Notes: generated by a model not told the origin, from the letters alone. 64,000 nucleotides of DNA from Candidatus Altimarinota bacterium (GCA_965231215.1 OZ246423.1:1216001-1280000), one strand, 5' to 3'; shown: positions 8,420-39,411, counted from the first letter of the stretch. Program-made: numbers and translations.

Positions 8420-8428
8420 AATCTGGTT

Positions 8429-8457
8429 ATTATACCTCAAAATAGCGGCTTTTTCAA
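8429..8457 (-). promoter_or_regulatory. Sigma70-type promoter of the VirB4-like gene
   Basis: TTGAAA-17 nt-TATAAT, 9 nt before ATG. Confidence 0.7.
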
Positions 8458-8549
8458 TGCGGAGGGTTTGCAAAAACAAAGAAATATTTTTTTTAAAACA
8501 TTCTATAGATAGAAAAACAATAGATCAAAGGTTGGATTTTTAAAATTTA

Positions 8550-8902
8550 TAAAAAAAACGTGAACCATTTTTCCCATATAACAGAGGGGTGATCCACGTT
8601 TTTTAGTTCTCCAATTTTGTCTTCCTGTAATCGATTTTTTTTAAGCGGATTACACGCTTTTTGTATTTATTTTTGTTTGGTGGGTGTTTTTTAATAACAG
8701 ATCAAAAGCAAGGCGCTCTAAATTAATAGAGATGGCTTTCTCTCTGATGTCTCAAGCTTAACGTTTGAGAAAGGGGAGAGGAAGACCAGGAGAAAACTCG
8801 ACTCTAACGAATTCCGTCAAAATCCCAATATGGTGATCGGTCGCCAAAGTCGAGATTCCTCCCGGGGGGAATTTCAAAAGTATGCAAAATTCTCAAAGAA
8901 CA
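8550..8902 (-). ncRNA. Candidate structured non-coding RNA
   Basis: Promoter-like TTGATT...TGGTACAAT at ~8907-8936, several stems (8786-8803/8848-8865, 8831-8846, 8750-8770), terminator-like stem plus T-run near 8550-8604, no ORF >=60 aa. Confidence 0.4.
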
Positions 8903-20100: not shown

Positions 20101-22456
20101 TTTAAAAGAACACTTAAATAGTTGTTCTCAAGCCTACGCCAATAGTCAGATGGATGGAGTTTCAGGGATAGAAGACTTGGAAGAAATTAGAAAAGTCTTT
20201 ATGGGCGTCGCCGGATCTTTAGATTTAGGTAAAGATCGGTGGGGGGGCGTGGTAGGAGCATTGAAAGACACGCATAAACATATTCCAGAAACAGCTCAAT
20301 TCCTAGACGATGAGTTAGGACTTTTAAAACCTGGAGGATACGAAGAAGCTAAAAGGAATTTTGAAAAAGAGCAAGCCAAAGCCAAACAGGAGGCAGAAGC
20401 TTTTTTTGCTTTAAGTAATGAAGTTTTACAAATTTGGGAAAAAGATATCAAAGAAATTGATGATAAAAAATTTAAACTGCTATATCACGTGGATAAGCCT
20501 ACGATGATGAAATATCTAGATGATTATCAAAATTTAACAGAAGATATAGTGGAAGGGTTTTATAACCCCTTTCTCAAGGATGGAGATTTTTTTCCGCAGT
20601 GGTTTCAGAGATATGCTGATCCAGATCAACAAATTCAAGCCATCAATGATATGAATTTCTTTCATGAATGGAAAGATTATATGTTTGAGAAGCCTTATTA
20701 TGAAAAAGCTAAAGAAGGGTTATTAGATTTTAGAAAAGGATACAAAGAAAACAGAAAGGCTGTGGATATAGGGGCTTTTGATCATTTAGTAAGACGCCCT
20801 TGGCGGTTTTTGAAAAGCATTCGTTATGAAAATGGAGCTACTTTGCTCAGTATCTATCATGTTATTATAGAGGTTTATGAGCTTACAGGGAAGCGGTGGG
20901 AACGCACCAAAGATCGTCGTAAAGCCTGGCTGGGGTCTAAACTTTTTGGTGATACTGCCTGGGGGAAAGAATTCCAACGAGTAGCCAATGAAAAAGAACA
21001 AGAACGGATTGAAGACTACAAGCGTATTCATCAAAAAGCTAATTACCAAGTGCTACAAGAACGAATGAAAAACCCAGGGAATCAAGATGAAGCTCGGGCA
21101 GTGATAGAACTCATGATAGAAAAAGGATATCTTCGTTGGGATGATCCAGAATTTCTTAGAATGCTTATGCGATTTCAGCATGGGGTACGGTTTAATCTTC
21201 CAGAAGATATTGAAAACTATGTAGAAAATCCGGCCGGTCTTAAACTGAAAATTGGTGATGCCGTAAGTGTGATTTGGGATCAGCCAACCTGGCTTAATTG
21301 GAAAGCCGATATGACCTCCAAGTACGAATCAGAAATGGGAAAACACAAAGCCGATTACCGTGAAGAGGTACAGAAGGGGAGTGTAGATGCTTATTTAAGT
21401 GATATGTTAGAAAAATGGGCTTTAGGAGAAATTGATGAAAATTTTGAACGAGCAAAATTTGAAGCTTATATCTATGAAGCCTTTGATAATGGAGAAATGA
21501 ACGGATACCCAGCAGGGGATAGACGGTGGTTTTATCTAATTAAAGGCCTCACTACCAAACTGGGGGGAACCGGAGAAACTATCTTGAGTACAGATGCTCT
21601 TTCACGTCTTGGGAAACTTCAAGGGAAAATGCCTTATACCGATGCTTTTGATGATGGAGTTGGCTGGAAACTCAATGGAAAAGTAGTGCCAGAAGGGACT
21701 CCTGGAGCCCATCAAGGATCTTGGGATTACAATGATATTCAACACTGGAATAAATATTTTGACCATATCAGTGGGTTTAATGGAACCCCTGAAGAAGTAA
21801 CGGTAGCGGTTCGAAGATGGCTTAATGATTCACTAGTGCCCACCTTTGATGCACAGGATCGTATGGGGAAAGTACAATTAACCGATATTGATAGGGATGA
21901 CGCTGGAATACTTCCGTTACTGCTTTCCCCAGAACGGTTAAGATCAGTGCTTGTCTTTGCCTCTGGGGATAAACGCCCAGTAGATGATAAATATTATGTT
22001 CAACTCTTGGATAGTTTTGAAAATAATCTTAAAGATACAATCCATAATTATAGAACATTTGAAAAAAATTATGAAGACTCTGAAGGGTATGACGAACTGA
22101 AACAGACAAACCTACTCCGTATTGGGCAAATGCTGAGAAACTATTTCCTAATGAGCCAAACTATGGCAGGAAACTGGGATGCTGAGTCTCATGTAGGAGC
22201 GGTAGTTTTGAGTGATATTGAATGGGAAAAAAATAAACTTGATGAAAAATATAAAAATATTGTGGGAGTTGTGGGAAAACTTTTTGGAGATGATGGAGAA
22301 GTAACTTCGCTTGTAGATGTACACAATAAAGAACAAGAGCCCTCTAAACATAAGGATAAATCTATTCAGTATACAGCCGATAAAGTAAAAAAAATCTATG
22401 AAGATACTAGGTTCACTGACCTAGGGCTGATAGAGAACTTTATAAAAAATATTTAG
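17132..22456 (+). CDS. Giant alpha-helical hypothetical protein (1774 aa)
   Basis: 5.3 kb ORF, E/K/L-rich, own TGGTATAAT promoter; no recognised domain. Confidence 0.85.
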   Translation: MKFLPLFTHSKRTDDSARFLAFAGSGVETEGAGEERAFLRAQENLKNPYKLSQKDLKVLEKNSDLLNAEDKKLLNGALEFHLSMLQKNGTETVANSFVTGVKFSKLWNLVSPALRVQVEGVMSRDHEQVKAIMAKRKESLSTNDRMHLLRIYRHMRTQKNVDKKLFDQVSETILKTTQSLIAEYEVTSTERGIEALNRSKKFQLQDKIFLLEASQVFPEVEQAQSLITAEQNAKLAMLSDSILKEIIKDLGDGPDGNKKFKRVEYLGSWEAVEALANGQTLSTAPENVRQTLNRLVQASQTAQFLHWAKNWKTFNGGLFLPEHVKALRSIKKDKEAEVNAVHTIFGAEKEMTDSEFQIFLQEWTEEKGDIKLQTKEKGEDDKESFEEASALDRVTEEQKKLNDPRTQFAAFKTKYEAIEAELRPLLSEDESFRNAWGEVPHEAVTLGVALTNPDWETSAEPFDDNILSQKLQEVHEYARNKRGTLAASNEEEEKAKANDYQKASEILDKFSSDLYEESYSKKKKEIDEQASKVRSQAMSQEAQLKEYVDLMQTIHGAPDEAGTLLGQYSEGLKTRIGERRLTGADMSVILQDEDAYELLGKEFYSHDLINIIRNFRDQFKTALVDPIINQLKANQPLNETDFLIELGQKLELGSILKNPDLKPVITELKYQLDGTEIPIKSVIDGIMASFRTDIWEQVRLSYPDLVGRISHNISGRAKTILDIEKATAGERHLHEVMSRYERAHQGLYDHEAIQKGMDAVGDYRRKLSSDQSELNRIKQATNKALGGASKQKIASYLNAYIPAVPVEKIHQALDSVTHTDIIAGNNETLLSQLQAQLPELGPLLQYRPDKKDEILTELGKLVVREGAAQAFDKAIESSSYNLNEGNDKFLGTKVLSEMALQLSPFIQEANILQKRLDYHLLTMQDRLKRGEHFTGAQLQAEFVKPVEDQVVNRLDLIGREAAQILNDLFPEYKERFNDRYLKTFNEKLDLLKEHLNSCSQAYANSQMDGVSGIEDLEEIRKVFMGVAGSLDLGKDRWGGVVGALKDTHKHIPETAQFLDDELGLLKPGGYEEAKRNFEKEQAKAKQEAEAFFALSNEVLQIWEKDIKEIDDKKFKLLYHVDKPTMMKYLDDYQNLTEDIVEGFYNPFLKDGDFFPQWFQRYADPDQQIQAINDMNFFHEWKDYMFEKPYYEKAKEGLLDFRKGYKENRKAVDIGAFDHLVRRPWRFLKSIRYENGATLLSIYHVIIEVYELTGKRWERTKDRRKAWLGSKLFGDTAWGKEFQRVANEKEQERIEDYKRIHQKANYQVLQERMKNPGNQDEARAVIELMIEKGYLRWDDPEFLRMLMRFQHGVRFNLPEDIENYVENPAGLKLKIGDAVSVIWDQPTWLNWKADMTSKYESEMGKHKADYREEVQKGSVDAYLSDMLEKWALGEIDENFERAKFEAYIYEAFDNGEMNGYPAGDRRWFYLIKGLTTKLGGTGETILSTDALSRLGKLQGKMPYTDAFDDGVGWKLNGKVVPEGTPGAHQGSWDYNDIQHWNKYFDHISGFNGTPEEVTVAVRRWLNDSLVPTFDAQDRMGKVQLTDIDRDDAGILPLLLSPERLRSVLVFASGDKRPVDDKYYVQLLDSFENNLKDTIHNYRTFEKNYEDSEGYDELKQTNLLRIGQMLRNYFLMSQTMAGNWDAESHVGAVVLSDIEWEKNKLDEKYKNIVGVVGKLFGDDGEVTSLVDVHNKEQEPSKHKDKSIQYTADKVKKIYEDTRFTDLGLIENFIKNI

Positions 22457-23784: not shown

Positions 23785-24441
23785 ATGAAAAAAATACTGG
23801 TTGTTTCTAGCTATATTCCAAAACCTGGATTTACCTATCCAAAAGGTTTTGAGTGTCCACTGTTACATCAAAATTATGCTCATGCACAAATACGTGGGAT
23901 GTCTAGATTTTTTGATGTTCCCATTGATTGGGAAATTCTTCCCGCTAATAAATATGATTATCAAGGGCTAAGTCAGCACTTTTTTTCAGACCAATATGAT
24001 GGGATTGTTTTAAGTGGTTCTCCTTACTTGTTAAGAGAATCAGAACCCTGGATTTTAAATCTAAGAATGATCTGTGCAGAATTCTTGCAAACTCCAAACA
24101 AACCTATTGTAGGAATTTGTTTTGGAGCACAACTTTTGAATGTTGCCTCAGGGGGAAACGTTGACTCTAGGGGATCGATCCTATGCGGCGAGAAATTTAT
24201 TAAAATGACCCAGAGTACCAAAAAAATTAAAACGCGTGTCTATCATGAGAATTTCTTAACTCAAATTCCCCAGAATGCTAAAATTTTAGCTACTGGACCA
24301 GAAGGTATGCCCTACATTGTTGAGTTTGATGCAAATGTAGTAGGGATTCAAAGCCATCCAGAATTGGAACTAAAAGACGAAACAGAAAACAGAAACGCTA
24401 ATGTTTTTTGGAAACAATTTTTTGCTAAACTTGATTTTTGA
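23785..24441 (+). CDS. Class I glutamine amidotransferase
   Basis: LSGSP, GICFGAQ, QSHPE catalytic triad. Confidence 0.9.
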   Translation: MKKILVVSSYIPKPGFTYPKGFECPLLHQNYAHAQIRGMSRFFDVPIDWEILPANKYDYQGLSQHFFSDQYDGIVLSGSPYLLRESEPWILNLRMICAEFLQTPNKPIVGICFGAQLLNVASGGNVDSRGSILCGEKFIKMTQSTKKIKTRVYHENFLTQIPQNAKILATGPEGMPYIVEFDANVVGIQSHPELELKDETENRNANVFWKQFFAKLDF

Positions 24442-24484: not shown

Positions 24485-24512
24485 AGTTAACACAATTTAT
24501 ATTGTTTTAATT
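24485..24512 (+). repeat. attL: dif-like 11-6-11 site
   Basis: agttaacacaa-tttata-ttgttttaatt; the arms are inverted repeats (9/11); the last 17 bp recur at 34132-34148. Confidence 0.75.
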
Positions 24513-24566
24513 TATACGATAGAGAGTGACTAGTCTTATTCTCTATTTCTTTATTTTTTTAGTCAC

Positions 24567-24857
24567 ATGAAAGACAAAGTTCTTTCTTCTCTCGCTTCCG
24601 TTCGGGCTAAAGCCTTTGCCATTCCTATGATGTTTGGTTTAGGTCTTCTTGGTGTAACCTATGCCCAATCCGCACCACCAGCCTCACTTATCACCTTGAG
24701 TGATACTGAGGAAACTGCTCTCTTCGATATTTATACCCAAGTTCTTGCTTGGCTTAAAGCTTTCGTTGTTGAGTTCAATTTGGTTATCGCAATCGTTATT
24801 GCGACAATCATTATTCTTGGCTTTATGTCACGATTCACTCGAAGAAAACGAGTTTAA
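24567..24857 (+). CDS. Putative major coat protein (pVIII-like)
   Basis: 33-aa signal ending TYA|QS, acidic N-terminus, amphipathic then hydrophobic helix, basic C-terminus RFTRRKRV; ~63 aa mature. Confidence 0.8.
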   Translation: MKDKVLSSLASVRAKAFAIPMMFGLGLLGVTYAQSAPPASLITLSDTEETALFDIYTQVLAWLKAFVVEFNLVIAIVIATIIILGFMSRFTRRKRV

Positions 24858-24866
24858 AAAAACAGT

Positions 24867-24888
24867 AGAAGCCTTCGGGCTTCTTCTT
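24867..24888 (+). terminator. Terminator-like hairpin after the coat gene
   Basis: agaagcc-ttcg-ggcttct followed by tctt. Confidence 0.7.
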
Positions 24889-24979
24889 GGGTGTTCCCCT
24901 CCTTGGCGCGAGGCTCTTGGGAACCCCTTAGAAAAAGTCTTCCGCGCCATCTTCTACATACCTTTTAACCATTACTATT

Positions 24980-25213
24980 ATGAAAGTCGAATTTTCCATC
25001 ATCCATCAAAAGGATATGGGTGAGAAAACCATGTTTTATTGCCTTGATCCTGATAGCGAAGTTGTCGCTATTAAAATTGATAACTCTTTATTGAAGAAAT
25101 TTTATGATGAATCTAAAAAGCTTATTTCTCTTTCTTACCTAGAGATTAAGCGTATCCGCAAGCCAGACTTTGGCTTTGTTAGTCAGGTGGGTATTTATGC
25201 CCCTAAAAACTAG
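24980..25213 (+). CDS. Small soluble phage protein (possible ssDNA-binding pV analogue)
   Basis: 77 aa, beta-strand-like pattern, located in the prophage; function inferred only. Confidence 0.55.
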   Translation: MKVEFSIIHQKDMGEKTMFYCLDPDSEVVAIKIDNSLLKKFYDESKKLISLSYLEIKRIRKPDFGFVSQVGIYAPKN

Positions 25214-25258
25214 TTCACACTCTTTTGCTTGTGTGTGTATTTTTAACCAATTTTGAGA

Positions 25259-25501
25259 ATGCAAGACCTTATTAACAATTTCGATTTTTTCGAGATCACG
25301 GTATCTCCCTTTGAGAACATCTTGTATTCTCAATTTTTGGTTGATTTCCTATTTAACGGTGAATTTGTTTATTTGTTTGCTAACTTATTTATTTTAGCCT
25401 TTATTTTTTCTCTTATCTCTCTCGTTCCAATTGTCATTATGCTTTTCTTTAAATGGCTCTTTTGGGACTGGATTGCTTTTTATTTACATAAAGTTTTTTA
25501 A
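25259..25501 (+). CDS. Small hydrophobic phage protein (minor coat candidate)
   Basis: ~80 aa with a long TM stretch; stop overlaps the next start (TAATG). Confidence 0.6.
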   Translation: MQDLINNFDFFEITVSPFENILYSQFLVDFLFNGEFVYLFANLFILAFIFSLISLVPIVIMLFFKWLFWDWIAFYLHKVF

Positions 25502-26352
25502 TGAAGTCTTTTTTTGACTCTTTATCATATCAGTTATTGCTGGTTTTTATACTAGTTCTTTTTTTCGTTGGGCATCCCGTTTCTAAAGTGAATGCTCAAT
25601 CTCCTAATTGTTCTTCTGATCCTAATATTGGTGTTTCTGGTTGTACTCAATCTGAGTGTTCTTCTCTCGGTGCTTACTGGAATGGCTCATCCTGTGAACC
25701 TGCTGTTTTGGGATGTACAAACTCTAATTCTACTAATTATTCCTCAAATGCTAACACTAATGATGGTTCTTGCTCTACTTGTAATACTATTGATAGGTCT
25801 GGGTGTTCCCAATCCGGTTGTTCAAGTACTGATGGTTTCTGGGATACTTCTGATGTTAGTAACCCTTATTGTCGTGCTAATACACAAGGCTGTACTGATA
25901 TAAATGCAGTAAATTATGATTCTTCTGCCACGACCAATGACGCATCTTCCTGTCTTTATTGTGAGCCTGATGATCCCGGCAATTGTCAAGATCAATCTTC
26001 TTGTGAAGGCGTAGGAGGGCTTTGGTACTCAAACACTTCTACTTGTGGTCAAGATGTACCAGGTTCTACTACTGCTCCTGACCCAGAACAATCACAGTAT
26101 TATGCTTCTTCTGCTTCAGCTGGTTACTTTGAAGCTTTTGAATCTCGTTGTGTTTCGCTCGATGAATCATTTGTTTGTGATCGCTGGGCTTTTGATTTAT
26201 CAGAAGACTTTTTGAAATTTCATATAAGTAGTATTTACAACTCTATCTATAACGCTGTAGGTACATTACTTATTATCACTCTCTCTTTTTTCTTGGTTGT
26301 TCAAATTTTAAAACGACCGATCAAAGCTATTTTTGGTAACTCTAAATTATAA
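25501..26352 (+). CDS. Cys-rich exported phage protein with C-terminal TM anchor
   Basis: Signal peptide (VNA|QS), two GCT...NY...A..ND..C repeats, C-terminal TM and basic tail. Confidence 0.8.
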   Translation: MKSFFDSLSYQLLLVFILVLFFVGHPVSKVNAQSPNCSSDPNIGVSGCTQSECSSLGAYWNGSSCEPAVLGCTNSNSTNYSSNANTNDGSCSTCNTIDRSGCSQSGCSSTDGFWDTSDVSNPYCRANTQGCTDINAVNYDSSATTNDASSCLYCEPDDPGNCQDQSSCEGVGGLWYSNTSTCGQDVPGSTTAPDPEQSQYYASSASAGYFEAFESRCVSLDESFVCDRWAFDLSEDFLKFHISSIYNSIYNAVGTLLIITLSFFLVVQILKRPIKAIFGNSKL

Positions 26353-26353
26353 A

Positions 26354-29300
26354 ATGAAAGCTTTTTTTTATCGTGCTTCGAGCAAAAATTTTCTAAAAAA
26401 TTTTTTGAGAAGTGCGAAACTTTGTCTTTTCGCGCTTCCGCTACTTTTCTCCGTTGCTTTTGCTTACCCTGTAAATAAAAGTAATGGTCAGACTACTATT
26501 TATCAGGGGTCTACTGTTAATTTTTTAGTCAGTACTTCTGATTTAGGTTTTACTCCTGCTGGTATTACTTGGTGGAGTGATTACTATTCTACTTCTCCTC
26601 GTTATGGAGATATTGTCGGTGGTTATGTTTATATTGATGGCGTACAATATGGCACTTCAAGCATATATTTCCCGGGCTTTGGTTTGCCTGTGACTTACAA
26701 TACTACAGGGGCTAAAATTCCTTATTTTTGTTTCCATACTCAAGGTTTAAATCAGCCAGGTGATACTCAAAGCTGTTTTACTTATAACTCGAACAATGGG
26801 GACCTTCCTACTAACAGTTATATAAATGTTATTTCTTATTCGGCTGGTAACCCTGATTTAAAGGTTAATGTGAAAAATATGGTTGATGGCTCTTTGTTTG
26901 AGCCAGGTGAAAACTTCCGATATGTGATTGAGGTTCAAAATGATGGTGGTGTAGAGTTAGGAACAACTCCTAGGATTCAATTCTATTGGAAAAAGGACAA
27001 TCGTTCTTATACACCTGAATATAAGTTTGGTTTTCTTGAACTTCCCAACCTCTCTGCTGGTCAAAAGAAACAGTACCTTTTAACCTTTCACGTTCCTGAT
27101 AATATTCCCGGCGGGAAATACTATTTATACTACGCTTTAGACTCCTTAGCCGAGGTTACTGAATCTTATGAAAATAATAATCGGTATTACGAGGAAATTA
27201 CTGTTTTAGATACTGATCCAGTTTATGCTGAACTTTTCAATGATTCTTCCTTAACTCAGCTTTCTACAACTACAGTTCAGCCCGGTCAAACTCTCCGATA
27301 TTACCCTTATTTTCGTAATACTGGTGATATTGATGCTAACTCCTTTCGTATACAATTTTATTGGCAAAAGGATACTCGATCCTATCAAGATCAATATAAA
27401 TTTGGTTATGCGACTGTTCCGGGAATTGTAAAACAAGGAGTTTACACAAAAGAGTATGTTTTTAATATCCCTGAACATACTCCACCAGGCACCTATTATC
27501 TTTACTATGTGATAGATTCTTTAAATCAGGTAGATGAAAATAATGAAAACAATAATCGTTACTATGCAACGATTACAGTTGAAGATGATACCGCTAACAA
27601 TAAACCCGATTATATAAATGACACCGGCCAAAGCGCTATATCTTCACAAAATTTAAATCCCGGTGATACTTTTTATTACGAACCTTATTTTTTAAATGTA
27701 GGTAATGCAGATGCTACTCGAGATGCTAGTGTCTATTTCTATTTTGGGAAAGATCGTATTTATGATTATGACTATCTTTTTGCAACTTCAACTATCCCCT
27801 CTCTTAATAGAGCACAGGCTCATAATCCAACCTTAAATTTTACTGTTCCACAGTATACACCACCAGGTACCTACTATCTTTACTATGAGATAGATTCATT
27901 TGATCAAATTGCTGAAGAAAATGAAAACAATAATCGTTACTACATTGAACTAACGATTAATTCAGACAATCAAACATCTTTGCCTGATCTTTTGGTGAAT
28001 GAATCATCTTCCCCAATTGATACTACTGTTTTTTTCCCCGGTAAGATATTTCGATACTACCCTACCTTTGTTAATGCCGGTGAAACTGCCTTAACCCGTT
28101 CTTTTCGTGTTTCTTTTTACTTGGAACCAAGTTCTAATGGGCAGAGTTTTCACTCTGATTTTTACCTTGGAAAAGCTGATGTAATCCCACTGGTTGCCGG
28201 TCAAACAAAACAGTACACTTTGACTTTTAAAGTCCCTGAAGATTATTCCCCGGGAAATTATAATTTTTATTATAAAATCGATTCTCTAGATCAAATTTCA
28301 GAGGAGGATGAAAATAACAATCATTACTCTATTTCTCTGGTTATTGATGATCTGTCCGGGGTTCAAGGCTGTACTGATCCAGATGCTTTAAACTACGATT
28401 CTTCTGCTGAGGTTGATGATGGCTCTTGTGTTTTGCCTGGTAAAAATTTATTTGCTTCTTTCCCAGCTTTTGACTTGAACATATTTGAAAGTGAGCCTCC
28501 GAATTATAATCAAGGAGACACTTTTAGTTTTTTCGTTGATATCTTTAATGATGGTACAGTCGATACTGAACCTACTACTATAAATTTTTATGTTAATCAT
28601 TCGGATGTTTCAGCCTCTCAACGATATTCTTCAAATTTAATAAATACCGAGTCTGTTCCCGCCTTGGTCGCTGGTGATACATCTTTTTCTAGCTTTTCTT
28701 ATACGGTTCCAGGTAATTTTCTTCCAGGTACTTATATAATTTCTTGGTCTCTTGATCCCAATAATCTCATTTCAGAAACTAATGAATCTGACAATAAAGA
28801 TTTTGCAATTTTTACTGTTGGTGATCCAGATGGAAATGTAGTTATATCTGGTTGTACCGATCCTTATGCGTCAAATTACAATCAATCGGCAAATGATGAT
28901 GATGGTACTTGTTTCTATGATGATGATTCAGGTGATAATTATTATTCAGAGCCTCCTGCTGATGATGTTTCTTTTACAGACTATGAAAATGAGTGGTGGG
29001 GTGACTACTTCCAAGGTGATTTACAAGATGACATAGATCAAAACTACAATTTAGATGTTGAAGACTATTTTGCAGATGCTTCTTCTGAGTCTTGTACTTT
29101 AAAAATTGGTGTTGCTGATACCACTGTTTTGTCTGATATAAAATTTGTCACTCATGTTTCGAGTTTAAGTAAAATTCTACCACTATCTTCTCCCGTTTCC
29201 TCTACCGGAAATTTTCAAATGTGTAAAGATGGTTTTTGTTCTGCCAATTTTACCGCTAATCTGACTGGCTATGTAGAATCTGGTCTTTATGCTCGTAAAA

Positions 29301-30922
29301 CAAGTAATATTGTAGCTTTTAATCCGTCTGCTTATGGATGGTCACATGGTACTATAGACTACACTTATACAACTGGTAGTTGTACTTATACCGGCTCTTT
29401 TGAGTATGTCCCAAGTAGCTACTTTGTTCCAGGTTGTACCTCTGTGAATGCAGAAAATTATAATGGTTCTGCAACTGTCGATGATGGTTCTTGCCGTTAT
29501 CCAAAAGAAGGGTGTCTTGATCCCGACGCTCTCAATTATGACCCCACAGCAACAATAGCGAGCAACGAAGCCTGTACCTATACCCCCTCGGCGGATTCTT
29601 CTTTCGGGTTTTCTATCGCGGATGGCTATGTTATCCCTGTTGGGAAGTCGTTTAAGGTCAATTACTGGTTTAATATTGATGAAATTGACTTTACCCCAGA
29701 AGAAGCTCGTTTTTACAAAGATTATCGTTTACAAACCTACATTTCACAAAAATTATATGAAGATGATCTACTGGACCAACGCGGTCTTGAGATATATGAC
29801 ACTTATGTATCTCGTGGTGAGTTTACACCTCGCCTATGTTTAATTAGTTCTACAGAGTCTAGAACTCTTTGTGTTTTCGTGGATGGCGAACAGAACTCTC
29901 TTTACGCTCAACATGTTACTGTTGTTGAAGACTCAGGAAAAGAGGGATGTTTAAATCCTCTAGCCCAAAACTATGATCCGTTAGTTACAATTTCAGATGG
30001 CTCCTGTATATTCTCGGGTTCCTCATCTACTCGCTTTTTTGGCAGAAAGTTTCAAACAGTTTTTGATACTGACCACTTAGAGGTTGATTTTTCTACTGAG
30101 AGAATTGAGGGTAAATGGGTTCAGTCTCTTGATTTTCCTAGTTTTGGTCCAACTCCAAATTTAGATTATGATGCATACCTTTGTTATACAAAAATTAACG
30201 AGGAACTTGATATAGAAGTACCAGAAGTTTGTGTTAAACTTGATTCCTTCGCTTATACAGAAGTTTCAGGACAATTAGAACTCCCCTTGCCTTCGAATTT
30301 CCAAGCAGAAGCTAACGCTTGTACAGATCAACAAGTTTTTAGAAGTTTCTATGTTCGCCATGTTTCTAACCCAAATGATCGGGTCGAAATGAATTTTTAC
30401 AATTCTTGGGAATCTGATACTCCTCAACAGTTGCCTAGTTCTCTCTGTTCACAGAATTCTGATATCTCGATTTATATTGATCCAGATGATGAGAATGCTT
30501 CTTCTCTGGGGATATTTGGTTTAAAAGATATAAATTTTGATCTTCCCGACTCAACACCAGCATTTTTTCAGTTTTTGGTTAAAGGCTATTCTGTCGAAAT
30601 TCCATATGTAAATTTTACTTTTAGCATTCCTGGCGTGGAATCTTTTTTAAGAGGGTTGTTTTGGTTTGGTAGCTTTACCTTTAAGCTTTTTGAGCAAATT
30701 CCATTCGTTGGTGATGTCTATAACTTAATGGCTCCAGTGCCATCCGCACAACTAAATTTTCCTCAAGTATTTTTTGGCGTAGAACTTGATAAACCTTCTT
30801 ACAATTCTGTTCAGTATGCTCGATTTGGTGATGATTTTTCGGACTTTTTTGAAAACTTAATTTGGTTTGTGCTAACTTTGTACTTTTTATCACTTCTTTT
30901 TTCCTATTTCTTTAAAACTTAA
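26354..30922 (+). CDS. Giant adhesin/attachment protein (pIII position): about 5 CARDB-like Ig domains plus 5 GCTD-type Cys repeats, C-terminal TM
   Basis: Signal peptide (AFA|YP), repeated PDL...N.G...PG.YYLYY.IDS...E.NENNN units, GCTDPDALNYDSSAEVDDGSC-type repeats; ATG at 26354 follows the previous stop. Confidence 0.85.
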   Translation: MKAFFYRASSKNFLKNFLRSAKLCLFALPLLFSVAFAYPVNKSNGQTTIYQGSTVNFLVSTSDLGFTPAGITWWSDYYSTSPRYGDIVGGYVYIDGVQYGTSSIYFPGFGLPVTYNTTGAKIPYFCFHTQGLNQPGDTQSCFTYNSNNGDLPTNSYINVISYSAGNPDLKVNVKNMVDGSLFEPGENFRYVIEVQNDGGVELGTTPRIQFYWKKDNRSYTPEYKFGFLELPNLSAGQKKQYLLTFHVPDNIPGGKYYLYYALDSLAEVTESYENNNRYYEEITVLDTDPVYAELFNDSSLTQLSTTTVQPGQTLRYYPYFRNTGDIDANSFRIQFYWQKDTRSYQDQYKFGYATVPGIVKQGVYTKEYVFNIPEHTPPGTYYLYYVIDSLNQVDENNENNNRYYATITVEDDTANNKPDYINDTGQSAISSQNLNPGDTFYYEPYFLNVGNADATRDASVYFYFGKDRIYDYDYLFATSTIPSLNRAQAHNPTLNFTVPQYTPPGTYYLYYEIDSFDQIAEENENNNRYYIELTINSDNQTSLPDLLVNESSSPIDTTVFFPGKIFRYYPTFVNAGETALTRSFRVSFYLEPSSNGQSFHSDFYLGKADVIPLVAGQTKQYTLTFKVPEDYSPGNYNFYYKIDSLDQISEEDENNNHYSISLVIDDLSGVQGCTDPDALNYDSSAEVDDGSCVLPGKNLFASFPAFDLNIFESEPPNYNQGDTFSFFVDIFNDGTVDTEPTTINFYVNHSDVSASQRYSSNLINTESVPALVAGDTSFSSFSYTVPGNFLPGTYIISWSLDPNNLISETNESDNKDFAIFTVGDPDGNVVISGCTDPYASNYNQSANDDDGTCFYDDDSGDNYYSEPPADDVSFTDYENEWWGDYFQGDLQDDIDQNYNLDVEDYFADASSESCTLKIGVADTTVLSDIKFVTHVSSLSKILPLSSPVSSTGNFQMCKDGFCSANFTANLTGYVESGLYARKTSNIVAFNPSAYGWSHGTIDYTYTTGSCTYTGSFEYVPSSYFVPGCTSVNAENYNGSATVDDGSCRYPKEGCLDPDALNYDPTATIASNEACTYTPSADSSFGFSIADGYVIPVGKSFKVNYWFNIDEIDFTPEEARFYKDYRLQTYISQKLYEDDLLDQRGLEIYDTYVSRGEFTPRLCLISSTESRTLCVFVDGEQNSLYAQHVTVVEDSGKEGCLNPLAQNYDPLVTISDGSCIFSGSSSTRFFGRKFQTVFDTDHLEVDFSTERIEGKWVQSLDFPSFGPTPNLDYDAYLCYTKINEELDIEVPEVCVKLDSFAYTEVSGQLELPLPSNFQAEANACTDQQVFRSFYVRHVSNPNDRVEMNFYNSWESDTPQQLPSSLCSQNSDISIYIDPDDENASSLGIFGLKDINFDLPDSTPAFFQFLVKGYSVEIPYVNFTFSIPGVESFLRGLFWFGSFTFKLFEQIPFVGDVYNLMAPVPSAQLNFPQVFFGVELDKPSYNSVQYARFGDDFSDFFENLIWFVLTLYFLSLLFSYFFKT

Positions 30923-30924
30923 TA

Positions 30925-31167
30925 ATGGGGACTTTTATAGATTACTTTGTTTCTGTTTTTAAAAAGTTTGTACTTATAACTATTTTTCTGGTTGTTTATA
31001 AAACCTTCTTTGAATCTCATGTTCAACAGCTTTTCGACTTCTTTCAATTTTATTTCTCACTGATATTTCATGGTTTTGGGAAGTATGAAACTTTTAAATT
31101 ACTAGCTGATATATTTTTGCTCTTGTTAACATTGAGGTTTTTCAACTGGCTACTTGCTACTAAATAA
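30925..31167 (+). CDS. Small membrane protein (pVI-like position)
   Basis: 80 aa, hydrophobic, between the pIII-like and Zot genes as in inoviruses. Confidence 0.7.
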   Translation: MGTFIDYFVSVFKKFVLITIFLVVYKTFFESHVQQLFDFFQFYFSLIFHGFGKYETFKLLADIFLLLLTLRFFNWLLATK

Positions 31168-31191
31168 TCTTAATTTTTTAACTACTTTATT

Positions 31192-31998
31192 ATGTACGGT
31201 TTAACTGGATATTTTGGTTCAGGGAAAACTTTGAATATGACAAAACTTCTTTTAAGAGATCATCAAGAAGGGAGATTTGTTGTTACAAATTATACAACTT
31301 CGTTTTCTAATGTGGTTGTAGGCTCTTTGCCTGAATTCGTAAAAATTTTAGAAGAAATATTTATTCTAAAAAATCATGGAAAGGAAATTGGTGATGTTAT
31401 TTCTCAAGTTGAGAAACCTTCGGGCTTTATATCAAAGTCATTAGGTCGTTCTACCAATTACCAAAAAATTTCAATAGGTCTTGATGAGGCTGGTATTTAT
31501 TTTAACTCTCGAGCATTTGCTGAATGGAAAAATTATCCCTATCTAGTGGATTTTATGCTCCAATGTAGAAAGCTTGATGTTCGTATTTACTATACGGTTC
31601 AACATCCTTTATATGTCGATGTCAATTTTAGACGTGTAACTGAAGTTTGGCGCTTATATAAAAAACTGCCATTTATACCGGCTTCTCATTCTTATGATTA
31701 TGTTCTAGACCCTGAAAATCCTGACTATAGAAATCCAATTGATAAACTTGGAGGTTCTTTTTCTTGGCTTGGAGAGCAAGAGGTTTGGAATTATTACGGA
31801 ACTAAAGAATTGGCTATGAAATATAAGCCAGATGATCTTAAGGAAGATTATCAATTTATATTAAATTCTAAAACTGGTAACTATTTTCGTAGATTACCCA
31901 TTCATCGCAGATTTTTTCCTAATTTTGTCGGTGTTTTTGACCGACCTCAAGCCCGCTCGCGGGCTGTTGGTCGGTTAACTCAGGGAACGACTGAATAA
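31192..31998 (+). CDS. Zot/pI-like morphogenesis ATPase
   Basis: N-terminal Walker A GYFGSGKT, VVTNY, Walker B IGLDEAG.YFNSR, QCRK....YTVQH...VD..FR. Confidence 0.92.
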   Translation: MYGLTGYFGSGKTLNMTKLLLRDHQEGRFVVTNYTTSFSNVVVGSLPEFVKILEEIFILKNHGKEIGDVISQVEKPSGFISKSLGRSTNYQKISIGLDEAGIYFNSRAFAEWKNYPYLVDFMLQCRKLDVRIYYTVQHPLYVDVNFRRVTEVWRLYKKLPFIPASHSYDYVLDPENPDYRNPIDKLGGSFSWLGEQEVWNYYGTKELAMKYKPDDLKEDYQFILNSKTGNYFRRLPIHRRFFPNFVGVFDRPQARSRAVGRLTQGTTE

Positions 31999-32008
31999 TG
32001 TCGTTCCC
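31940..32008 (+). other. Tandem GC-rich hairpins, candidate replication origin or packaging signal
   Basis: accgacc..agcccgc/gcgggct..ggtcggt (31940-31975) and a perfect 9-bp stem gggaacgac/gtcgttccc (31983-32008), upstream of rep. Confidence 0.55.
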
Positions 32009-32034
32009 CCATCTTATTTTTTAATCAAATAAAA

Positions 32035-32187
32035 ATGTCTAAAGAATATAAAACTCCTTCTCAATTTATATCTGATTTTAAATCTACTTCTGATCCAGAA
32101 GAACAACTAAAAATCGCTAAGAGGTATGCAAATCAAAATTATAAAAAAGGTTTGATGCACACCTTTAATAAAAAATTTAATCGTTAA
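32035..32187 (+). CDS. Small basic phage protein (50 aa)
   Basis: MSKEYKTPSQFISDFKSTSDPEEQLKIAKRYANQNYKKGLMHTFNKKFNR; ends 4 nt before the rep start; below the ORF-track cutoff. Confidence 0.5.
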   Translation: MSKEYKTPSQFISDFKSTSDPEEQLKIAKRYANQNYKKGLMHTFNKKFNR

Positions 32188-32191
32188 AAAT

Positions 32192-33160
32192 ATGAAATCT
32201 AAATACCTTTATTTTGGTTTAGACTTTCTTCGTCTAAATTTCAAGTCTAGTTATAAAAATATTAGATTTGATAATTATTTTTCTGGACTATCTGCTAACT
32301 CAAATTTTAAAACGGTAGATTGGTTCGGTCTTACTTTTAACTGTACTTTCACTCAAACCGGTAATAAAAAAATTCTTATATTTAATTATAATGATTTTCC
32401 TGTTTTTGTTTTGGAAGAATTTTTAGATGGTGGGATTAATACTCATACATCTTATGTAATTCAGTTTTATAGTGCTTTTTTTTATATAAAAGAACTGGAT
32501 TTATTTTTGTTCGCTTTTTTAAATTATTATGGTCGTTACTGCTATATAACTCGCTTCGATATAGCTTTGGATGTTCCCTTGTCCATAAGTGATTTCGTTT
32601 CAAAAGGGTATTCTACTAAGTTTCGAAAGGGGGCTAAGTTTGGTTTAAATGAAAATACTGGTGAATTTGAAACTTGGTATCTCGGGGCTAAAGGATGCTC
32701 AAATAAAAAACACTTTATAAGAATCTATAACAAACTTTTAGACTCAAAGAAAAAATCAAAAATGATGCTTTTTTGGCAATACTTTGATTTTGAGGATGTC
32801 ACCAGAATTGAAGTACAGGTTAATTCTCAATCCTGTTCTGTCTTTGGTGCAATACCGGATAATATAACAGATATTAACTTTCTCGGTTCTGTTTTTAAGT
32901 CTTGTGCTGTAAATAAATCAGGCACTATTTTTAATCACTTAGAGGATTTAGATTTTATAAATTCTTCTTCTCTAATTGCTTATAAAAAGCCTAAAAAATC
33001 AGATATTATTGACAAACTTTCTTACGCTAAAACCATGCTTGGCTATGCTCAAACTTTATTGGATCAAGGTTTTGATCCTGTTTTGTTTTTAAGAGATAAT
33101 TTGAAAGATAATCAACCCAAGTATTCCAATGATAATTCCTCCAATCATGTACCAGTTTAG
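32192..33160 (+). CDS. Rolling-circle replication initiation factor (Rep_trans family)
   Basis: GLDFLR, ITRFDIALD, ETWYLG, FIRIYNK, TRIEVQ motifs. Confidence 0.9.
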   Translation: MKSKYLYFGLDFLRLNFKSSYKNIRFDNYFSGLSANSNFKTVDWFGLTFNCTFTQTGNKKILIFNYNDFPVFVLEEFLDGGINTHTSYVIQFYSAFFYIKELDLFLFAFLNYYGRYCYITRFDIALDVPLSISDFVSKGYSTKFRKGAKFGLNENTGEFETWYLGAKGCSNKKHFIRIYNKLLDSKKKSKMMLFWQYFDFEDVTRIEVQVNSQSCSVFGAIPDNITDINFLGSVFKSCAVNKSGTIFNHLEDLDFINSSSLIAYKKPKKSDIIDKLSYAKTMLGYAQTLLDQGFDPVLFLRDNLKDNQPKYSNDNSSNHVPV

Positions 33161-33565
33161 AGGCATTTCTTCGTTATCTTTTAGTTCTAATTTTTCTATT
33201 ATCTCCGATTTCCCGATACACATTATCCTCATATTTGCACATTCTTTTCTTGTATAACTGTCTATTTCCAATGTGGTAAACATTATTCCTTTGTTTATTC
33301 CGTCTCTCAAAAGACAACCTCCTAAACACCTTACTTCTTTAACTGGTAAGGTGTTTAGTTTTTTTGTACCTTTATTCCATTTTTTACATTGTGTGTATAT
33401 TTTTTCTCCTCCAAATTCTGATATGACATCTACTCCCCTATCTCCGAAAGATTTAGTCACATAAATTTTTTTGTGTCCCATTAGCTCTAAAAATTCTTTA
33501 GCAAAAAATTCAAACTGTCTTGGGGTTAGGCTTTTGACTTGTTGGAATGTCTTATATTTAGTCAT
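33089..33565 (-). CDS. Mrr-like restriction endonuclease domain with C-terminal TM helix
   Basis: LTPRQFE...MGH...VTKSFGDRGVDVI...TQCKKW (Mrr_cat D..QxK); tail WYMIGGIIIGILGLIIFQII. Confidence 0.85.
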   Translation of the reverse strand: MTKYKTFQQVKSLTPRQFEFFAKEFLELMGHKKIYVTKSFGDRGVDVISEFGGEKIYTQCKKWNKGTKKLNTLPVKEVRCLGGCLLRDGINKGIMFTTLEIDSYTRKECANMRIMCIGKSEIIEKLELKDNEEMPLNWYMIGGIIIGILGLIIFQIIS

Positions 33566-34043
33566 CTTTGAAAATTGTCCTATACATGTGGTCTATACAT
33601 TTTTCAGCTGTTTTTGATTCTGCCTTTTCGTTCATAAAATCTTTTAAGGCAGTAATTTTTCTTTCGATCTCAGGTGTTTTTTCGATTTGTATGTATTTTT
33701 TACCCATTTTGGTATTTTTTTGAATTTCCCGGATTTTAAAATTAAATCCTTCTTTCCGTATTATATATTCTTTCTTGGTCTTTCTTTCAACTCCATATTT
33801 CTGTTCTCTAAAATCTTCATCATCTATATACGATGTATATTCTCCACAATTTTCACATTTTAACTTCCCTACTTCTTCATCGTATCTTAAATTTTTATGC
33901 CTAAACTCTCTTTCAGGGTAAGGGAATTTATATCTTTCTTTGTAGCATTTTTCGCATCTGGCTTTTACAATATTGATGTTAACCATTTTGTAGGGTTTTA
34001 AGTTTAACAAATCCCTACTAACTGCTTGACGATTATGTGTCAA
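33558..34043 (-). CDS. Zn-ribbon-containing basic protein, possible phage regulator
   Basis: CEKC and CENC pairs; overlaps the start of the Mrr-like gene. Confidence 0.6.
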   Translation of the reverse strand: MTHNRQAVSRDLLNLKPYKMVNINIVKARCEKCYKERYKFPYPEREFRHKNLRYDEEVGKLKCENCGEYTSYIDDEDFREQKYGVERKTKKEYIIRKEGFNFKIREIQKNTKMGKKYIQIEKTPEIERKITALKDFMNEKAESKTAEKCIDHMYRTIFKDD

Positions 34044-34120
34044 ATTTTATTTTAATATTAATTAATGTAAATTTAATATTAAATAGTATACTTTTAATAT
34101 GAAAATGCTTGTTTTCAAGT

Positions 34121-34148
34121 GAATATTATTGTTTATATTGTTTTAATT
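34121..34148 (+). repeat. attR: degenerate left arm plus shared 17-bp core
   Basis: gaatattattg-tttata-ttgttttaatt; 34132-34148 is identical to 24496-24512. Confidence 0.75.
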
Positions 34149-34231
34149 AAAAACACACTTAAAACCAGCCTATCAAAAAATTACTACATAAAAATTTGGA
34201 AGCCTTATTCATTCTTCTTTATAATCAACCT

Positions 34232-34636
34232 ATGAAAAAAAATAAAAACTCACAACCGATGACTATTTTATATTCCTTTGTACTGTGGACTACCTCTGTT
34301 GTAGTTTCGGTATTTTTTTCTGTATTTATAGTTCAGATTTATATACTTGGAAGCTTTAACATTGATAAAAGCGCTCGAACTGAAAGCTTTAATAAAAAAG
34401 TTCAATGTAAAGGGCTTGAATACCAAATTTTTGGAATTATCCCTGAAGATAAAAAAGCAGGCTTTCAGGGTATGGTTTATGATCCACGCCTAGATACTTG
34501 TGTGCTTGGGAATATTGTAGAGATCAAGGATGACGCAGGGGAAATCAAAAATATTTTTGTTGTTGAAGACGTGCTTAATAGAAAAATCTTGAGCCAGCAA
34601 GAAGTCCAAACAGCACCTCAACAAGTCCTTCAATAG
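34232..34636 (+). CDS. Single-TM hypothetical protein
   Basis: ATG at 34232 lies 6 nt after TATAAT; N-terminal TM; two Cys. Confidence 0.7.
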   Translation: MKKNKNSQPMTILYSFVLWTTSVVVSVFFSVFIVQIYILGSFNIDKSARTESFNKKVQCKGLEYQIFGIIPEDKKAGFQGMVYDPRLDTCVLGNIVEIKDDAGEIKNIFVVEDVLNRKILSQQEVQTAPQQVLQ

Positions 34637-34720: not shown

Positions 34721-35374
34721 ATGGCAATAAAAAACGTTACCGCAACTCGTATGACTATGCTGGGTCTAAAAAATCAGTCTAGTGTCGCTAAAAGAGGACA
34801 CAAATTACTGAAAGATAAGCAAGATGGTCTCATGCAAGAATTTTTAGCTATTGTGCATAAAGCCAAAGCTCTTCGTATGGAAGTTGAAGTTGCTATTAAA
34901 GCCGCTAATAATAGTTTTTTACTAGCTCAGGCAAGTATGCCAAAAGAAGTATTAGAAAACGTGCTTTCTAATCCTGCACAAAGTCTAAAACTAGAGGTAA
35001 AAACAAAAAATGTAATGTCGGTTCGTATACCGGTATTTCAACTAAAAACAGAAGGAAACGCTCTTCACTACGGTTTAGCTCAAACCAGAGGTGAACTAGA
35101 CCTGGCTATTTCTGAGTTTGCTAAGGTGTTTACCCTGCTACTAGAACTTGCTGAAATTGAAAAAGCCGCTGAAAATTTAGCCCTTGAAATTGAAAAAACT
35201 CGTCGAAGAGTAAATGCGCTTGAACATAGATTAATTCCAGATCTCGAAGACACGCTGAAATTCATCAAGATGAAACTTGGTGAAGCTGAGCGTTCAGCAA
35301 TTGTGCAAGTGATGGCTATTAAGAATATGATTGAAGCTCAAGAAGCTGAAGCTCAAATGAAGCAGGTAGCATAA
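34721..35374 (+). CDS. atpD: V/A-type ATP synthase subunit D
   Basis: TRM.M..LK......RGHKLLKDKQD, NVMSVRIP, EIEKTRRRVNALEH. Confidence 0.95.
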   Translation: MAIKNVTATRMTMLGLKNQSSVAKRGHKLLKDKQDGLMQEFLAIVHKAKALRMEVEVAIKAANNSFLLAQASMPKEVLENVLSNPAQSLKLEVKTKNVMSVRIPVFQLKTEGNALHYGLAQTRGELDLAISEFAKVFTLLLELAEIEKAAENLALEIEKTRRRVNALEHRLIPDLEDTLKFIKMKLGEAERSAIVQVMAIKNMIEAQEAEAQMKQVA

Positions 35375-38028: not shown

Positions 38029-39411
38029 ATGCAAAAAACCTACGAAAACATTCAGTCAATTGCCGGTCCAATCCTAGTCGTAGACGGAGTTGAAGGCGCT
38101 AAGTATGAAGAACTTGTCGAAGTAACTCTTGCCAACGGAGATAAAAAAATGGGAAAAGTGTTAGAAGTACATAAAAATCGAGCGATGGTTCAAATGTTTG
38201 AATCTACTCAAGGTCTTGGGACGGAAGGACTTAAGGCTAAGTTTCTAGGAAAGATTGCGACGCTTGGCGTTTCAGGAGACATGCTCGGTCGAATTTTCAA
38301 CGGGGCCGGAAAACCTATCGATGGTGGAGCCGAAATTTTGGCTGAAAAACACGTAGATATTGCGGGAGCTTCTATCAATCCTTACTCTCGAGAATTCCCT
38401 TCTGACTTTATTCAGACGGGTGTTTCTTCCTTGGATGTGATGAACACACTTGTACGAGGACAGAAATTGCCAATCTTCTCAGGAGCAGGTCTTCCCCACT
38501 CTGAGTTAGCCGTACAAATTGCCCGAAATGCAAAAGTGAACGATGGTTCAGAATTCGCCGTAGTATTTGGGGCGATGGGAGTAACCTTTGAAGAAGCCAT
38601 GTTCTTCCAAAAAGAATTTGAACGAACTGGAGCTATTGAAAAAGCCACACTCTTTATCAATACTGCAGCCGATCCAGTGGTTGAGCGTATTGCCGTTCCG
38701 CGAATGGCTCTTTCTTATGCTGAGTACTTGGCCTTTGAAAAAGAAATGCATGTACTGGTGATCCTGACAGACCTTACCAACTACGCAGAAGCTCTACGTG
38801 AAGTATCTGCTGCACGTAAAGAAGTTCCAGGTCGTCGTGGATACCCAGGTTATCTATACACGGATCTTTCTACTTTATATGAACGAGCAGGACGAATTAA
38901 AGGGAAAAAAGGTTCTGTGACTCAGATGCCTATCCTTTCAATGCCTGAAGATGATATTACACATCCCATTCCAGATCTAACGGGATATATTACTGAAGGA
39001 CAATTTGTACTAGATCGAGGCCTTCATCAAAAACAAATTGAAGCCCCTGTGGATGTACTTAAATCTCTTTCACGTCTAGCCGGTGCTGGAATGGGAGAAG
39101 GAAAAACGCGAGATGATCACTCAAAACTAAAAGACCAACTCTTTGCCTGTTATGCCCGTGGTAAAGATGTACGTGAATTAGCCGTGGTACTTGGGGAAAG
39201 TTCTCTTTCTGATATTGATAAAACGTACCTTAAATTTGCTGAAGAATTTGAAGCTCAATTCATCGGACAAGGGTTTGATTCTGATCGAAACATTATTGAT
39301 TCATTAGAGCTTGGATGGGAACTTCTAAGACCATTCCCTGTAACAGAACTTAAACGTATTAATCAGAAAACTATTGACGCGTTCCACCCAGATCACCGAG
39401 ACAAGAAGTAA
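38029..39411 (+). CDS. atpB: V/A-type ATP synthase subunit B
   Basis: [55 protein letters not shown]. Confidence 0.98.

Follow-up and report, generated by a model that had tools for sequence, protein, structure and literature searches.

A probable filamentous-phage-type prophage at a dif-like site in the closed genome of a Candidate Phyla Radiation bacterium

We analysed a stretch of 64,000 nucleotides from Candidatus Altimarinota bacterium (GCA_965231215.1 OZ246423.1:1216001-1280000), hereafter the window, which carries an insertion of 9,636 bp at positions 24496-34148. We conclude that this insertion is probably an integrated filamentous-phage-type (Tubulavirales-like) single-stranded DNA (ssDNA) element of a bacterium of the Candidate Phyla Radiation (CPR), that it represents a deep, rarely sampled lineage, and that it most likely entered the chromosome by Xer/dif integration.

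Results

The element is an exactly bounded, variable insertion

The insertion is bounded by an exact 17-bp direct repeat. The two copies, at 24496-24512 and 34132-34148, are spaced 9,636 bp apart and are the only ones in the whole 1.326-Mb genome. When the end spacers, of 125 and 152 bp, were shuffled, a word of at least 17 bp was common to both in 1 of 20,000 trials. The repeat predicts an excised circle of 9,636 nt. The element is present as a single copy, and its proteins have no paralogues elsewhere in the genome. Nine of its open reading frames (ORFs) are co-oriented on the + strand and two lie on the - strand. All 11 frames are intact, and every ORF listed in an earlier interpretation of this DNA (the sequence-only reading) was found open at its position. 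That reading had also described a T-rich coding strand; we measured 37.5% T over 24513-33160 versus 27.2% and 29.1% in the flanking host genes, confirming the description.

On the left, the element is flanked by a glutamine-amidotransferase-like gene (23785-24441) and on the right by a V-type ATPase subunit D gene (34721-35374, NCBIfam). The flanking genes are kept together in all four congeners. The gap between them is 186 bp in one congener (G001) versus 10.3 kb in the window. A homologue of the element's ATPase was detected in one of the 40 relatives searched and in none of the four same-genus genomes, so the block is not one that is conserved and syntenic in all relatives. The element is a variable insertion in this genus.

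The repeat is part of a dif-like site

The repeat proved to be part of a longer site, which the sequence-only reading had not recognized as dif-like. The two junctions are as follows (no strand assigned).

24485-24512: attL, a dif-like site complete over its 28 bp, with an 11-bp arm on either side of a 6-bp centre; the last 17 bp are the left repeat copy
34121-34148: attR, a hybrid site in which a phage-derived left arm precedes the 6-bp centre and right arm found in attL; the right repeat copy occupies 34132-34148

The 17-bp repeat thus corresponds to the 6-bp centre and the right arm of the 28-bp site. The arms are complementary at 9 of 11 positions in attL, and the left arm of attR matches its right arm in this way at 4 of 11. 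Two 11-bp half-sites around a 6-bp centre is the layout described for dif (PMC5357621). The same 28-bp site is found in the empty spacer of all four congeners, with conserved arms and a variable centre even though the DNA around it is 63-77% identical, and it is unique in the host genome. Allowing up to 3 mismatches, it occurs in 15 of the other 24 family genomes, 13 of which have it at a single place, and in 0 of 16 genomes of other families; a reversed-pattern control gave 1 hit in 41 genomes. Two further family genomes carry the site at 0 and 1 mismatch when a shorter pattern is used, a pattern that is otherwise as noisy as its control.

The host genome encodes exactly two tyrosine recombinases (PF00589), at 818 kb and 883 kb, and the best NCBIfam models of both are XerC/XerD (6.8e-66 and 3.1e-47). 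An element-borne integrase was rejected because no element protein matched a recombinase family. Taken together, a single-copy, family-conserved site of 11-6-11 layout, two Xer-like recombinases in the host and none in the element make Xer-dependent integration, of the type known for integrative mobile elements exploiting Xer (IMEX), the most likely route. Four integration routes have been described for filamentous phages, one of which uses the host XerCD at dif (PMC4471427), and an attP sharing the centre and one arm with its target resembles the TLCphi and gonococcal genetic island (GGI) types (PMC5357621). Since attL keeps a complete dif, chromosome dimer resolution should survive the insertion.

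The host is judged to be a CPR bacterium

The host genome (G000, in which the window is C1:1216001-1280000) is closed, measures 1,326,059 bp and is 99.3% complete. The 120 best relatives of its MutL carry only the organism names Gracilibacteria, Peregrinibacteria, Peribacteria, Parcubacteria, Patescibacteria group, 'bacterium' and DOLZORAL124_38_8. Ribosomal protein L30, whose absence is a CPR trait, was not found in the host, while a control search matched 13 of 14 genomes. A secretin was found neither in the element nor in the host genome (the control matched 6), which bears out the earlier statement that a pIV secretin is missing. From the names of the MutL relatives, the genome size and the failure to find L30 and a secretin, we judge that the host is a CPR bacterium, in agreement with the CPR/Patescibacteria origin proposed earlier. 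An alternative genetic code was rejected: 92 of 795 long frames end in TGA, which is read as a stop.

The plus-strand genes form an inovirus-type block

The nine co-oriented genes, all on the + strand, are the following.

24567-24857 (+): g1, candidate major coat precursor, 96 aa, proposed from architecture and position only
24980-25213 (+): g2, soluble beta-rich protein, 77 aa
25253-25501 (+): g3, small membrane protein, 82 aa, with a hydrophobic segment at 45-63 and no family match
25501-26352 (+): g4, 283 aa, with a signal-like N-terminus, C-terminal membrane segments and Cys-rich repeats (repeat family D2) common to g5
26354-30922 (+): g5, giant, predicted secreted CARDB adhesin, 1,522 aa if counted from the ATG at 26354 (1529 aa in the ORF list, which uses a TTG start at 26333)
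30925-31167 (+): g6, pVI-like by position, 80 aa, with two hydrophobic segments
31192-31998 (+): g7, Zot/pI-type assembly ATPase by Pfam Zot, phrog_1675 and fold matches, 268 aa
32035-32187 (+): g8, small basic protein upstream of rep, 50 aa, no relative found
32192-33160 (+): g9, rolling-circle initiator of the Rep_trans family by family profile, 322 aa, with Tyr179 as the probable catalytic residue

The ATPase, the Rep_trans initiator, the coat-like protein and the small membrane proteins support the earlier view of an inovirus-type block with the order pIII-pVI-pI. On an excised circle, the order would read Rep, regulatory genes, att, coat, pIII, pVI, pI and back to Rep. The order that had been called unusual (coat first, rep after zot) is merely a circular permutation of this one, and looks unusual because of where attP lies on the circle.

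g7 is a Zot-like ATPase

The strongest family evidence concerns g7. It scores 24.1 bits on the Pfam Zot profile (PF05707, cut-off 20.3), so the Zot-like ATPase predicted earlier passes the profile check, and it matches phrog_1675, 'protein I of M13', at 8.4e-9. Its homologue in G014, a metagenome-assembled genome (MAG) of another genus named 'bacterium DOLZORAL124_38_8', scores 37.1 bits on Pfam Zot and 2.9e-13 on phrog_1675. When g7 was compared with 50,697 phage records, all 12 matches were filamentous phages or pI-annotated proteins, or small Vibrio elements, with about 28% identity over residues 1-147.

A structural model of g7 built from a 12-sequence alignment has a mean predicted local distance difference test score (pLDDT) of 71.6, and its core blocks (1-70 and 121-200) average 79-93 each. 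The best PDB match of this model is the N-terminal domain of Zot (2r2a, 4.6e-7), followed by EccC (5e-5) and FtsK (1.1e-4). In BFVD, the four best matches are all 'Zonular occludens toxin [Inoviridae sp.]' (6.5e-12 to 4e-8). With Zot proteins (2r2a and the Inoviridae models) as its closest folds, the ATPase does not group by fold with the cellular FtsK/HerA families. Profile searches against the PDB with two-sequence (Rep, Zot) or five-sequence (Zot) alignments returned nothing meaningful.

The clade to which g7 belongs comprises 12 clusters of 197-308 aa among 5.8 billion proteins (word-indexed search), several of them on contigs of 5-9 kb. A pattern scan of one genome per species (185,579 species) gave a sole other match, a distant ATPase relative at 2423-2827 of a 2,982-bp contig (L020) from a Syntrophomonadaceae MAG (26% identity, 2e-8).

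Candidate virion proteins

Membrane segments in these proteins were called with Kyte-Doolittle windows, a cruder predictor than and distinct from TMHMM. By hydropathy and charge counts, g1 has a signal-peptide-like stretch (1-33), an acidic stretch (34-62, with 4 D/E and no K/R), a hydrophobic stretch of 24 residues (63-86) and a basic tail (87-96, with 5 K/R in 10). Without the signal-like part it would measure about 63 aa, and this predicted layout is that of a textbook major coat precursor. Inoviruses typically encode short proteins (30-90 aa) with a single transmembrane domain (TMD); g1 in its mature form, g3 and g6 are of this kind, g6 having two segments. We consider g3 a candidate minor virion protein. 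g6 is homologous to an 84-aa protein at the equal position in G014 (2e-5).

The 77-aa g2 was modelled by AlphaFold2 from its single sequence (pLDDT 65.8, 5 strands). The model has no PDB match at E<=0.001, the best being a designed OB-like barrel (E 0.16). Weak Atlas leads, both below the 0.9 line, point to Putative_G5P (0.80) and CTX_RstB (0.76). A role of g2 in binding ssDNA is possible, at the level of a guess from the model.

The giant g5 contains five CARDB stretches (Pfam 1.4e-51), a signal-like N-terminus and a C-terminal hydrophobic anchor. Its residues 1386-1521 match the C-termini of a 463-aa protein in G014 (2e-6) and of a protein on a metagenome contig, L022 (1e-9), both at the same gene position. 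These counterparts are much shorter than g5, and the homology covers the last ~135 residues. g5 is therefore best described as a pIII-like candidate, in which a conserved virion-anchoring domain would be joined to a variable receptor-binding part.

g5 and g4 also share the D2 repeat, a Cys-bounded unit of ~21 aa resembling GCTDxxAxNYDxxAxxDDGSC, which occurs once in the g4 stretch (25888-25950) and three times in g5 (28367-28429, 28850-28912 and 29432-29494). Pfam has no match for this unit, possibly a small disulfide module belonging to phage or surface proteins of CPR.

The initiator and a conserved hairpin

Taken singly, g9 falls below the Pfam cut-off for Rep_trans (PF02486; 16.1 versus 29.6 bits), so the earlier family call does not hold on the single protein, but it does at the level of the family. 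A two-sequence Rep profile retrieved 238 cluster representatives at E<=1e-3, and a profile of 68 representatives matches the staphylococcal Rep structures 4cwc (4e-10) and 4cwe (6.4e-10). The aligned blocks are RxDxAxD (acidic), ETxYxG, FIRxYxK and RxExE, and the invariant residues are D123, D127, G165, Y179, K181, R205 and E207. Among the 68 relatives, 37 match Pfam Rep_trans and 6 match Phage_CRI, the N-domain of inovirus G2P. On these sequence grounds, the Rep_trans assignment of g9 stands. A tblastn search with Rep against the 50,697 phage records gave no match.

A conserved hairpin lies close to this gene.

31983-32008 (+): conserved hairpin with a 9-bp stem and an 8-nt loop, TGAATAAT, lying across the end of g7 and before g8/rep

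The G014 element contains an identical copy of 20 nt, even though the proteins of the two elements are 40-48% identical. L022 carries a copy with 1 mismatch, 70 nt before rep, and contigs L021 and L058 carry copies with complementary changed stems. In the alignment, 5 of 9 pairs change on both sides and 95.6% of cells pair, a value that 0 of 500 shuffles reach; this result comes from five sequences, with the structure derived from those same sequences. The origin hairpin IR-II of pT181 likewise has a sequence-conserved loop. A conserved loop on a co-varying stem suggests, by analogy, that the hairpin may be the nick site of Rep (double-strand origin).

More distant Rep genes (L024-L029) are preceded, 10-40 nt upstream, by G+C-rich hairpins with A/T-rich loops, for example on a GGTCACG...CGTGACC stem, reminiscent of the hairpin in the window's element. 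The metagenome contig L055 contains two copies of a distant Rep relative (977-1342 and 8381-8746) at a spacing of 7,404 bp, and a Zot-like match lies between the copies; the contig may represent a tandem prophage or a circle whose assembly ran beyond its end.

Related elements and accessory genes

The G014 element (~6.3 kb, in chromosome contig L018) has the order coat-like, three small genes, 463-aa pIII-like, pVI-like, Zot and Rep, with Mrr_cat and zinc-ribbon genes on the other strand. L022 (5,141 bp) encodes the C-terminus of a pIII-like protein, then pVI-like, Zot, Rep, coat-like and Mrr_cat proteins, and Rep occurs with Mrr_cat on L021 and L029. Thus, the order pIII-like/pVI-like/pI/Rep and the C-terminal anchor domain are kept in three elements that are 40-48% identical. 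In G014 a second coat paralogue follows rep: the two copies, at 8692-8850 and 13649-13924 of L018 (52 and 91 aa), are 59% identical over 44 residues. A coat paralogue at each end, with the hairpin after the first, suggests that the G014 prophage is rearranged or partly duplicated.

In the window, the two opposite-strand genes are:

33089-33565 (-): g10, Mrr_cat (PD-(D/E)xK) nuclease-domain protein, 158 aa (Mrr_cat 1.9e-14), with a C-terminal hydrophobic segment at 140-158
33558-34043 (-): g11, zinc-ribbon protein with two CxxC pairs, 161 aa, with 41% identity (5e-18) to its positional counterpart in G014

Homologues of g10 stand beside rep in G014, L021, L022 and L029, and we class g10 by this neighbourhood as a conserved accessory gene of the putative phage group. 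Searches with g11 gave sub-threshold leads only (Pfam, Atlas), to zinc ribbons and to ribbon-helix-helix (RHH)/CopG-like clusters; g11 is a candidate regulator or repressor.

Other features of the locus

Two non-coding features were recorded within the element.

34044-34131 (no strand assigned): non-coding A+T-rich region with a palindrome, I18, at 34043-34080
24867-24884 (no strand assigned): G+C-rich hairpin just 3' of g1, listed on the - strand by a scan for terminator-like sites; weak

On the circle, 34044-34131 would join 24513-24566 to form a divergent promoter/att region. Promoter-like hexamers lie at 34071-34044 (- strand); over the region, such sites are fewer than the shuffle mean. 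Terminator-like sites number 9 in the region versus a shuffle mean of 6.3 and are not above shuffles.

Outside the repeat, a 146-aa membrane protein (34196-34636, +) is encoded between the dif-like site and the V-ATPase D gene. One congener, G004, has an unrelated-looking 253-aa multi-pass membrane protein at that spot, between the amidotransferase and V-ATPase D genes (2350-3111, -, of L013), and G001 has no gene there. These differing genes may be cargo left from earlier insertions into this site. The host's V/A-type ATP synthase subunits D and B (34721-35374 and 38029-39411, NCBIfam) lie to the right of the locus, and a 1,774-aa host ORF (17132-22456) lies just upstream of it. The window element and the G014 element both adjoin the subunit D gene, in opposite orientation relative to it. 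Integration linked to a tRNA was rejected, the sole tRNA of the window being at 5121-5210.

Discussion

How the element would integrate and replicate

A filamentous-phage-type life cycle can be proposed as follows. In the double-stranded replicative form, attP would have the 6-bp centre and one of the 11-bp arms in common with the host dif. Host Xer recombinases would exchange strands there, as they do for IMEX elements, so that attL ends up with a complete dif and attR with a hybrid site. Once the element is excised, Rep would nick the plus strand, probably in the TGAATAAT loop of the hairpin upstream of g8/rep, and start rolling-circle replication. The soluble pI-type ATPase and the membrane proteins g3 and g6 would pass the ssDNA, perhaps coated by g2, across the single membrane, where the DNA would gain the membrane-inserted coat protein g1 and be capped by g5/g6. 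A secretin would not be needed. The divergent pair formed by g11 (zinc ribbon) and g10 (Mrr_cat) may act as a regulatory or exclusion module. The chronic, non-lytic virus proposed in the sequence-only reading is likewise a prediction.

Several observations weigh against an Xer-integrated filamentous phage. Canonical pI (gene I of Ff phages) consists of an N-terminal ATPase, a membrane helix and an outer (periplasmic) domain. None of the 12 members of the g7 clade has a membrane segment (no 19-residue window with a mean hydropathy of at least 1.6), and g7 thus appears to resemble pI in role without being a canonical full-length pI. g1 has no significant family match among Pfam and PHROG profiles, and any similarity between it and the relatives' coat-like proteins is below detection. 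More generally, the putative coat, pIII-like, pVI-like and ssDNA-binding roles were assigned from architecture, position and within-group homology, with no matches to known inovirus proteins. For placement among catalogued inoviruses, pattern scans of IMG/VR with the Zot and Rep alignments returned no relative, a result that does not imply absence because such scans need exact short peptide patterns. The hairpin could possibly be a packaging signal or just a terminator, and in G014 it lies 3' of a coat gene and not before rep. Concerning integration, both NCBIfam Xer matches fall below the equivalog cut-offs. The flanking repeat of the G014 element is 12 bp (exact), and its att was not established as a clear dif, the fit to the family pattern being no better than that of the reversed control. 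Finally, by GC skew the host origin falls at about 664 kb and the switch at about 1.283 Mb, 43 kb from the site at 1.2405 Mb; in the prophage-free G004, the maximum is at ~245 kb and the site at 280.5 kb (35 kb off). The site is thus in the terminus region but 35-43 kb (~3% of the genome) from the skew switch, not at it.

Alternative explanations

Could the element be non-viral or defective? It might be a rolling-circle plasmid-like IMEX or a cryptic prophage remnant that makes no virions and whose Zot-like ATPase and adhesin are perhaps used by the host. Rep_trans proteins are also plasmid initiators, and the best solved relatives of g9 are staphylococcal plasmid Reps; the ATPase without a membrane segment and the lack of family-level support for the coat, pIII and pVI roles would fit as well, and the episymbiont itself could use the giant CARDB protein for adhesion. 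We nevertheless find this explanation unlikely. A remnant is hard to square with an exact repeat and 11 intact frames out of 11, or with a gene order and a C-terminal anchor domain kept at 40-48% identity in three elements. The T-rich coding strand, an ATPase whose closest folds are Inoviridae Zot proteins, and the occurrence of its relatives on 5-9-kb contigs also point to a phage. An artefact, in which a free phage contig was misjoined into the chromosome, seems hardly credible. The assembly is of a metagenome type, and the three sequencing runs that contain the stretch all come from one study. Against this, both flanks are syntenic with four congeners around one conserved 28-bp site, and the junctions show the attL/attR pattern expected from site-specific recombination; this combination argues against a chimeric assembly. 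In addition, a related element is found in a chromosome contig of another genus, also beside a V-ATPase D gene.

The same prophage might instead encode its own integration, through nicking-joining by Rep or through the Mrr_cat nuclease with the zinc-ribbon protein, the palindrome being the preferred site. An Mrr_cat gene with no assigned role stands beside rep in five elements (the window, G014, L021, L022 and L029), and the distance of the site from the skew switch and the poor fit of the G014 junctions to the family dif pattern could be read in the same way. We give this mechanism a low probability because the target has the exact 11-6-11 Xer layout, is present as a single copy and is conserved in genera mostly without the element, which implies a function for the host. 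Moreover, the repeat comprises the centre and one arm, as in the known IMEX attP (PMC5357621), and the host carries two Xer-like recombinases. We know of no PD-(D/E)xK nuclease that carries out conservative site-specific insertion. Integration by the host Xer recombinases remains the explanation that we prefer.

Significance

That inoviruses occur in CPR has been known since 2019, when Roux et al. included the Candidate Phyla Radiation in the inovirus host range (PMC6813254). In the excerpts of that paper, we found no dif/Xer integration or att-site analysis for CPR hosts. Among literature excerpts on inoviruses with Patescibacteria/CPR, no described CPR inovirus was found beyond Roux et al. 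2019, whose tables may already contain the present lineage; one paper concerns a filamentous phage of the host of a CPR bacterium, not of the CPR bacterium itself (PMC13059738). Excerpts on Xer-exploiting elements and dif likewise yielded no CPR case.

Few CPR viruses have been resolved gene by gene, and their hosts are mostly uncultured and genetically hard to manipulate. The locus described here offers, in a closed CPR genome, a complete and exactly bounded probable filamentous-type prophage with an attP/attB pair, a candidate receptor-binding protein and a candidate replication origin. Incidentally, it also suggests which dif site and which Xer pair an entire CPR family may have, and these could serve as a site-specific integration platform. 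The anchor-less pI-type clade is relevant to the exit of filamentous phages from single-membrane cells lacking a secretin. More tentatively, and with well under even confidence, we suggest a family-level filamentous-phage lineage that is specific to Gracilibacteria-related CPR and still active, with a soluble, anchor-less pI, no secretin, a CARDB adhesin that may bind the episymbiont or its bacterial host, and Xer integration at a dif that we did not find described for this CPR family. If this is true, the element would be a natural chronic-infection vector and integration platform for organisms with hardly any genetic tools.

Comparison with known systems

The closest parallels are the IMEX phages (CTXphi, VGJphi and TLCphi; phiRSS1, XacF1 and Cf1c). 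Like them, the element lacks a recombinase, would use a 28-bp target of 11-6-11 layout and has a predicted attP that includes the centre and one arm of it; the order pIII-like/pVI-like/pI(Zot) and divergent regulatory genes adjoining att are also shared (PMC4471427, PMC5357621). Unlike these phages of proteobacteria, it resides in a monoderm-type CPR host, and its recombination is deduced from sequence. Its Rep is of the Rep_trans type and is encoded downstream of an ATPase that lacks membrane and periplasmic parts, an Mrr_cat nuclease gene belongs to the conserved core, and no toxin-like cargo was seen in the element.

The initiator resembles RepC/RepD of the pT181 family (PDB 4cwc, 4cwe) in its motif blocks, aligned at 4e-10, and in a candidate origin hairpin with a conserved loop. 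Unlike these plasmid proteins, g9 is phage-borne, measures 322 aa and falls below the Pfam cut-off when taken singly, and nicking is a prediction here.

With the Ff/IKe Inoviridae (M13, fd, IKe), the element shares the pIII-pVI-pI order, a T-rich plus strand and a predicted coat precursor with a signal peptide, an acidic N-terminus and a basic C-terminus. The named phage proteins nearest to g7 are the gene I products of IKe and of Erwinia PEar phages (~28% identity over 1-147). Unlike Ff/IKe phages, the element has no pIV secretin, integrates, has a pI without a membrane anchor and uses another Rep family, of which 6 of 68 members touch Phage_CRI/G2P. M13 pIII has 424 aa, and the adhesin g5 is about 3.5 times as long.

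Roux et al. 2019 detected inoviruses by a pI-like ATPase, the only conserved marker, by 30-90-aa proteins with a single TMD and by short genes (PMC6813254). As in the CPR inoviruses of that study, all three features are present in the element. Compared with filamentous phages in general, its distinctive features are the anchor-less pI-type clade, the giant predicted CARDB adhesin, the conserved Mrr_cat/zinc-ribbon module and the Rep_trans-type initiator with its conserved hairpin.

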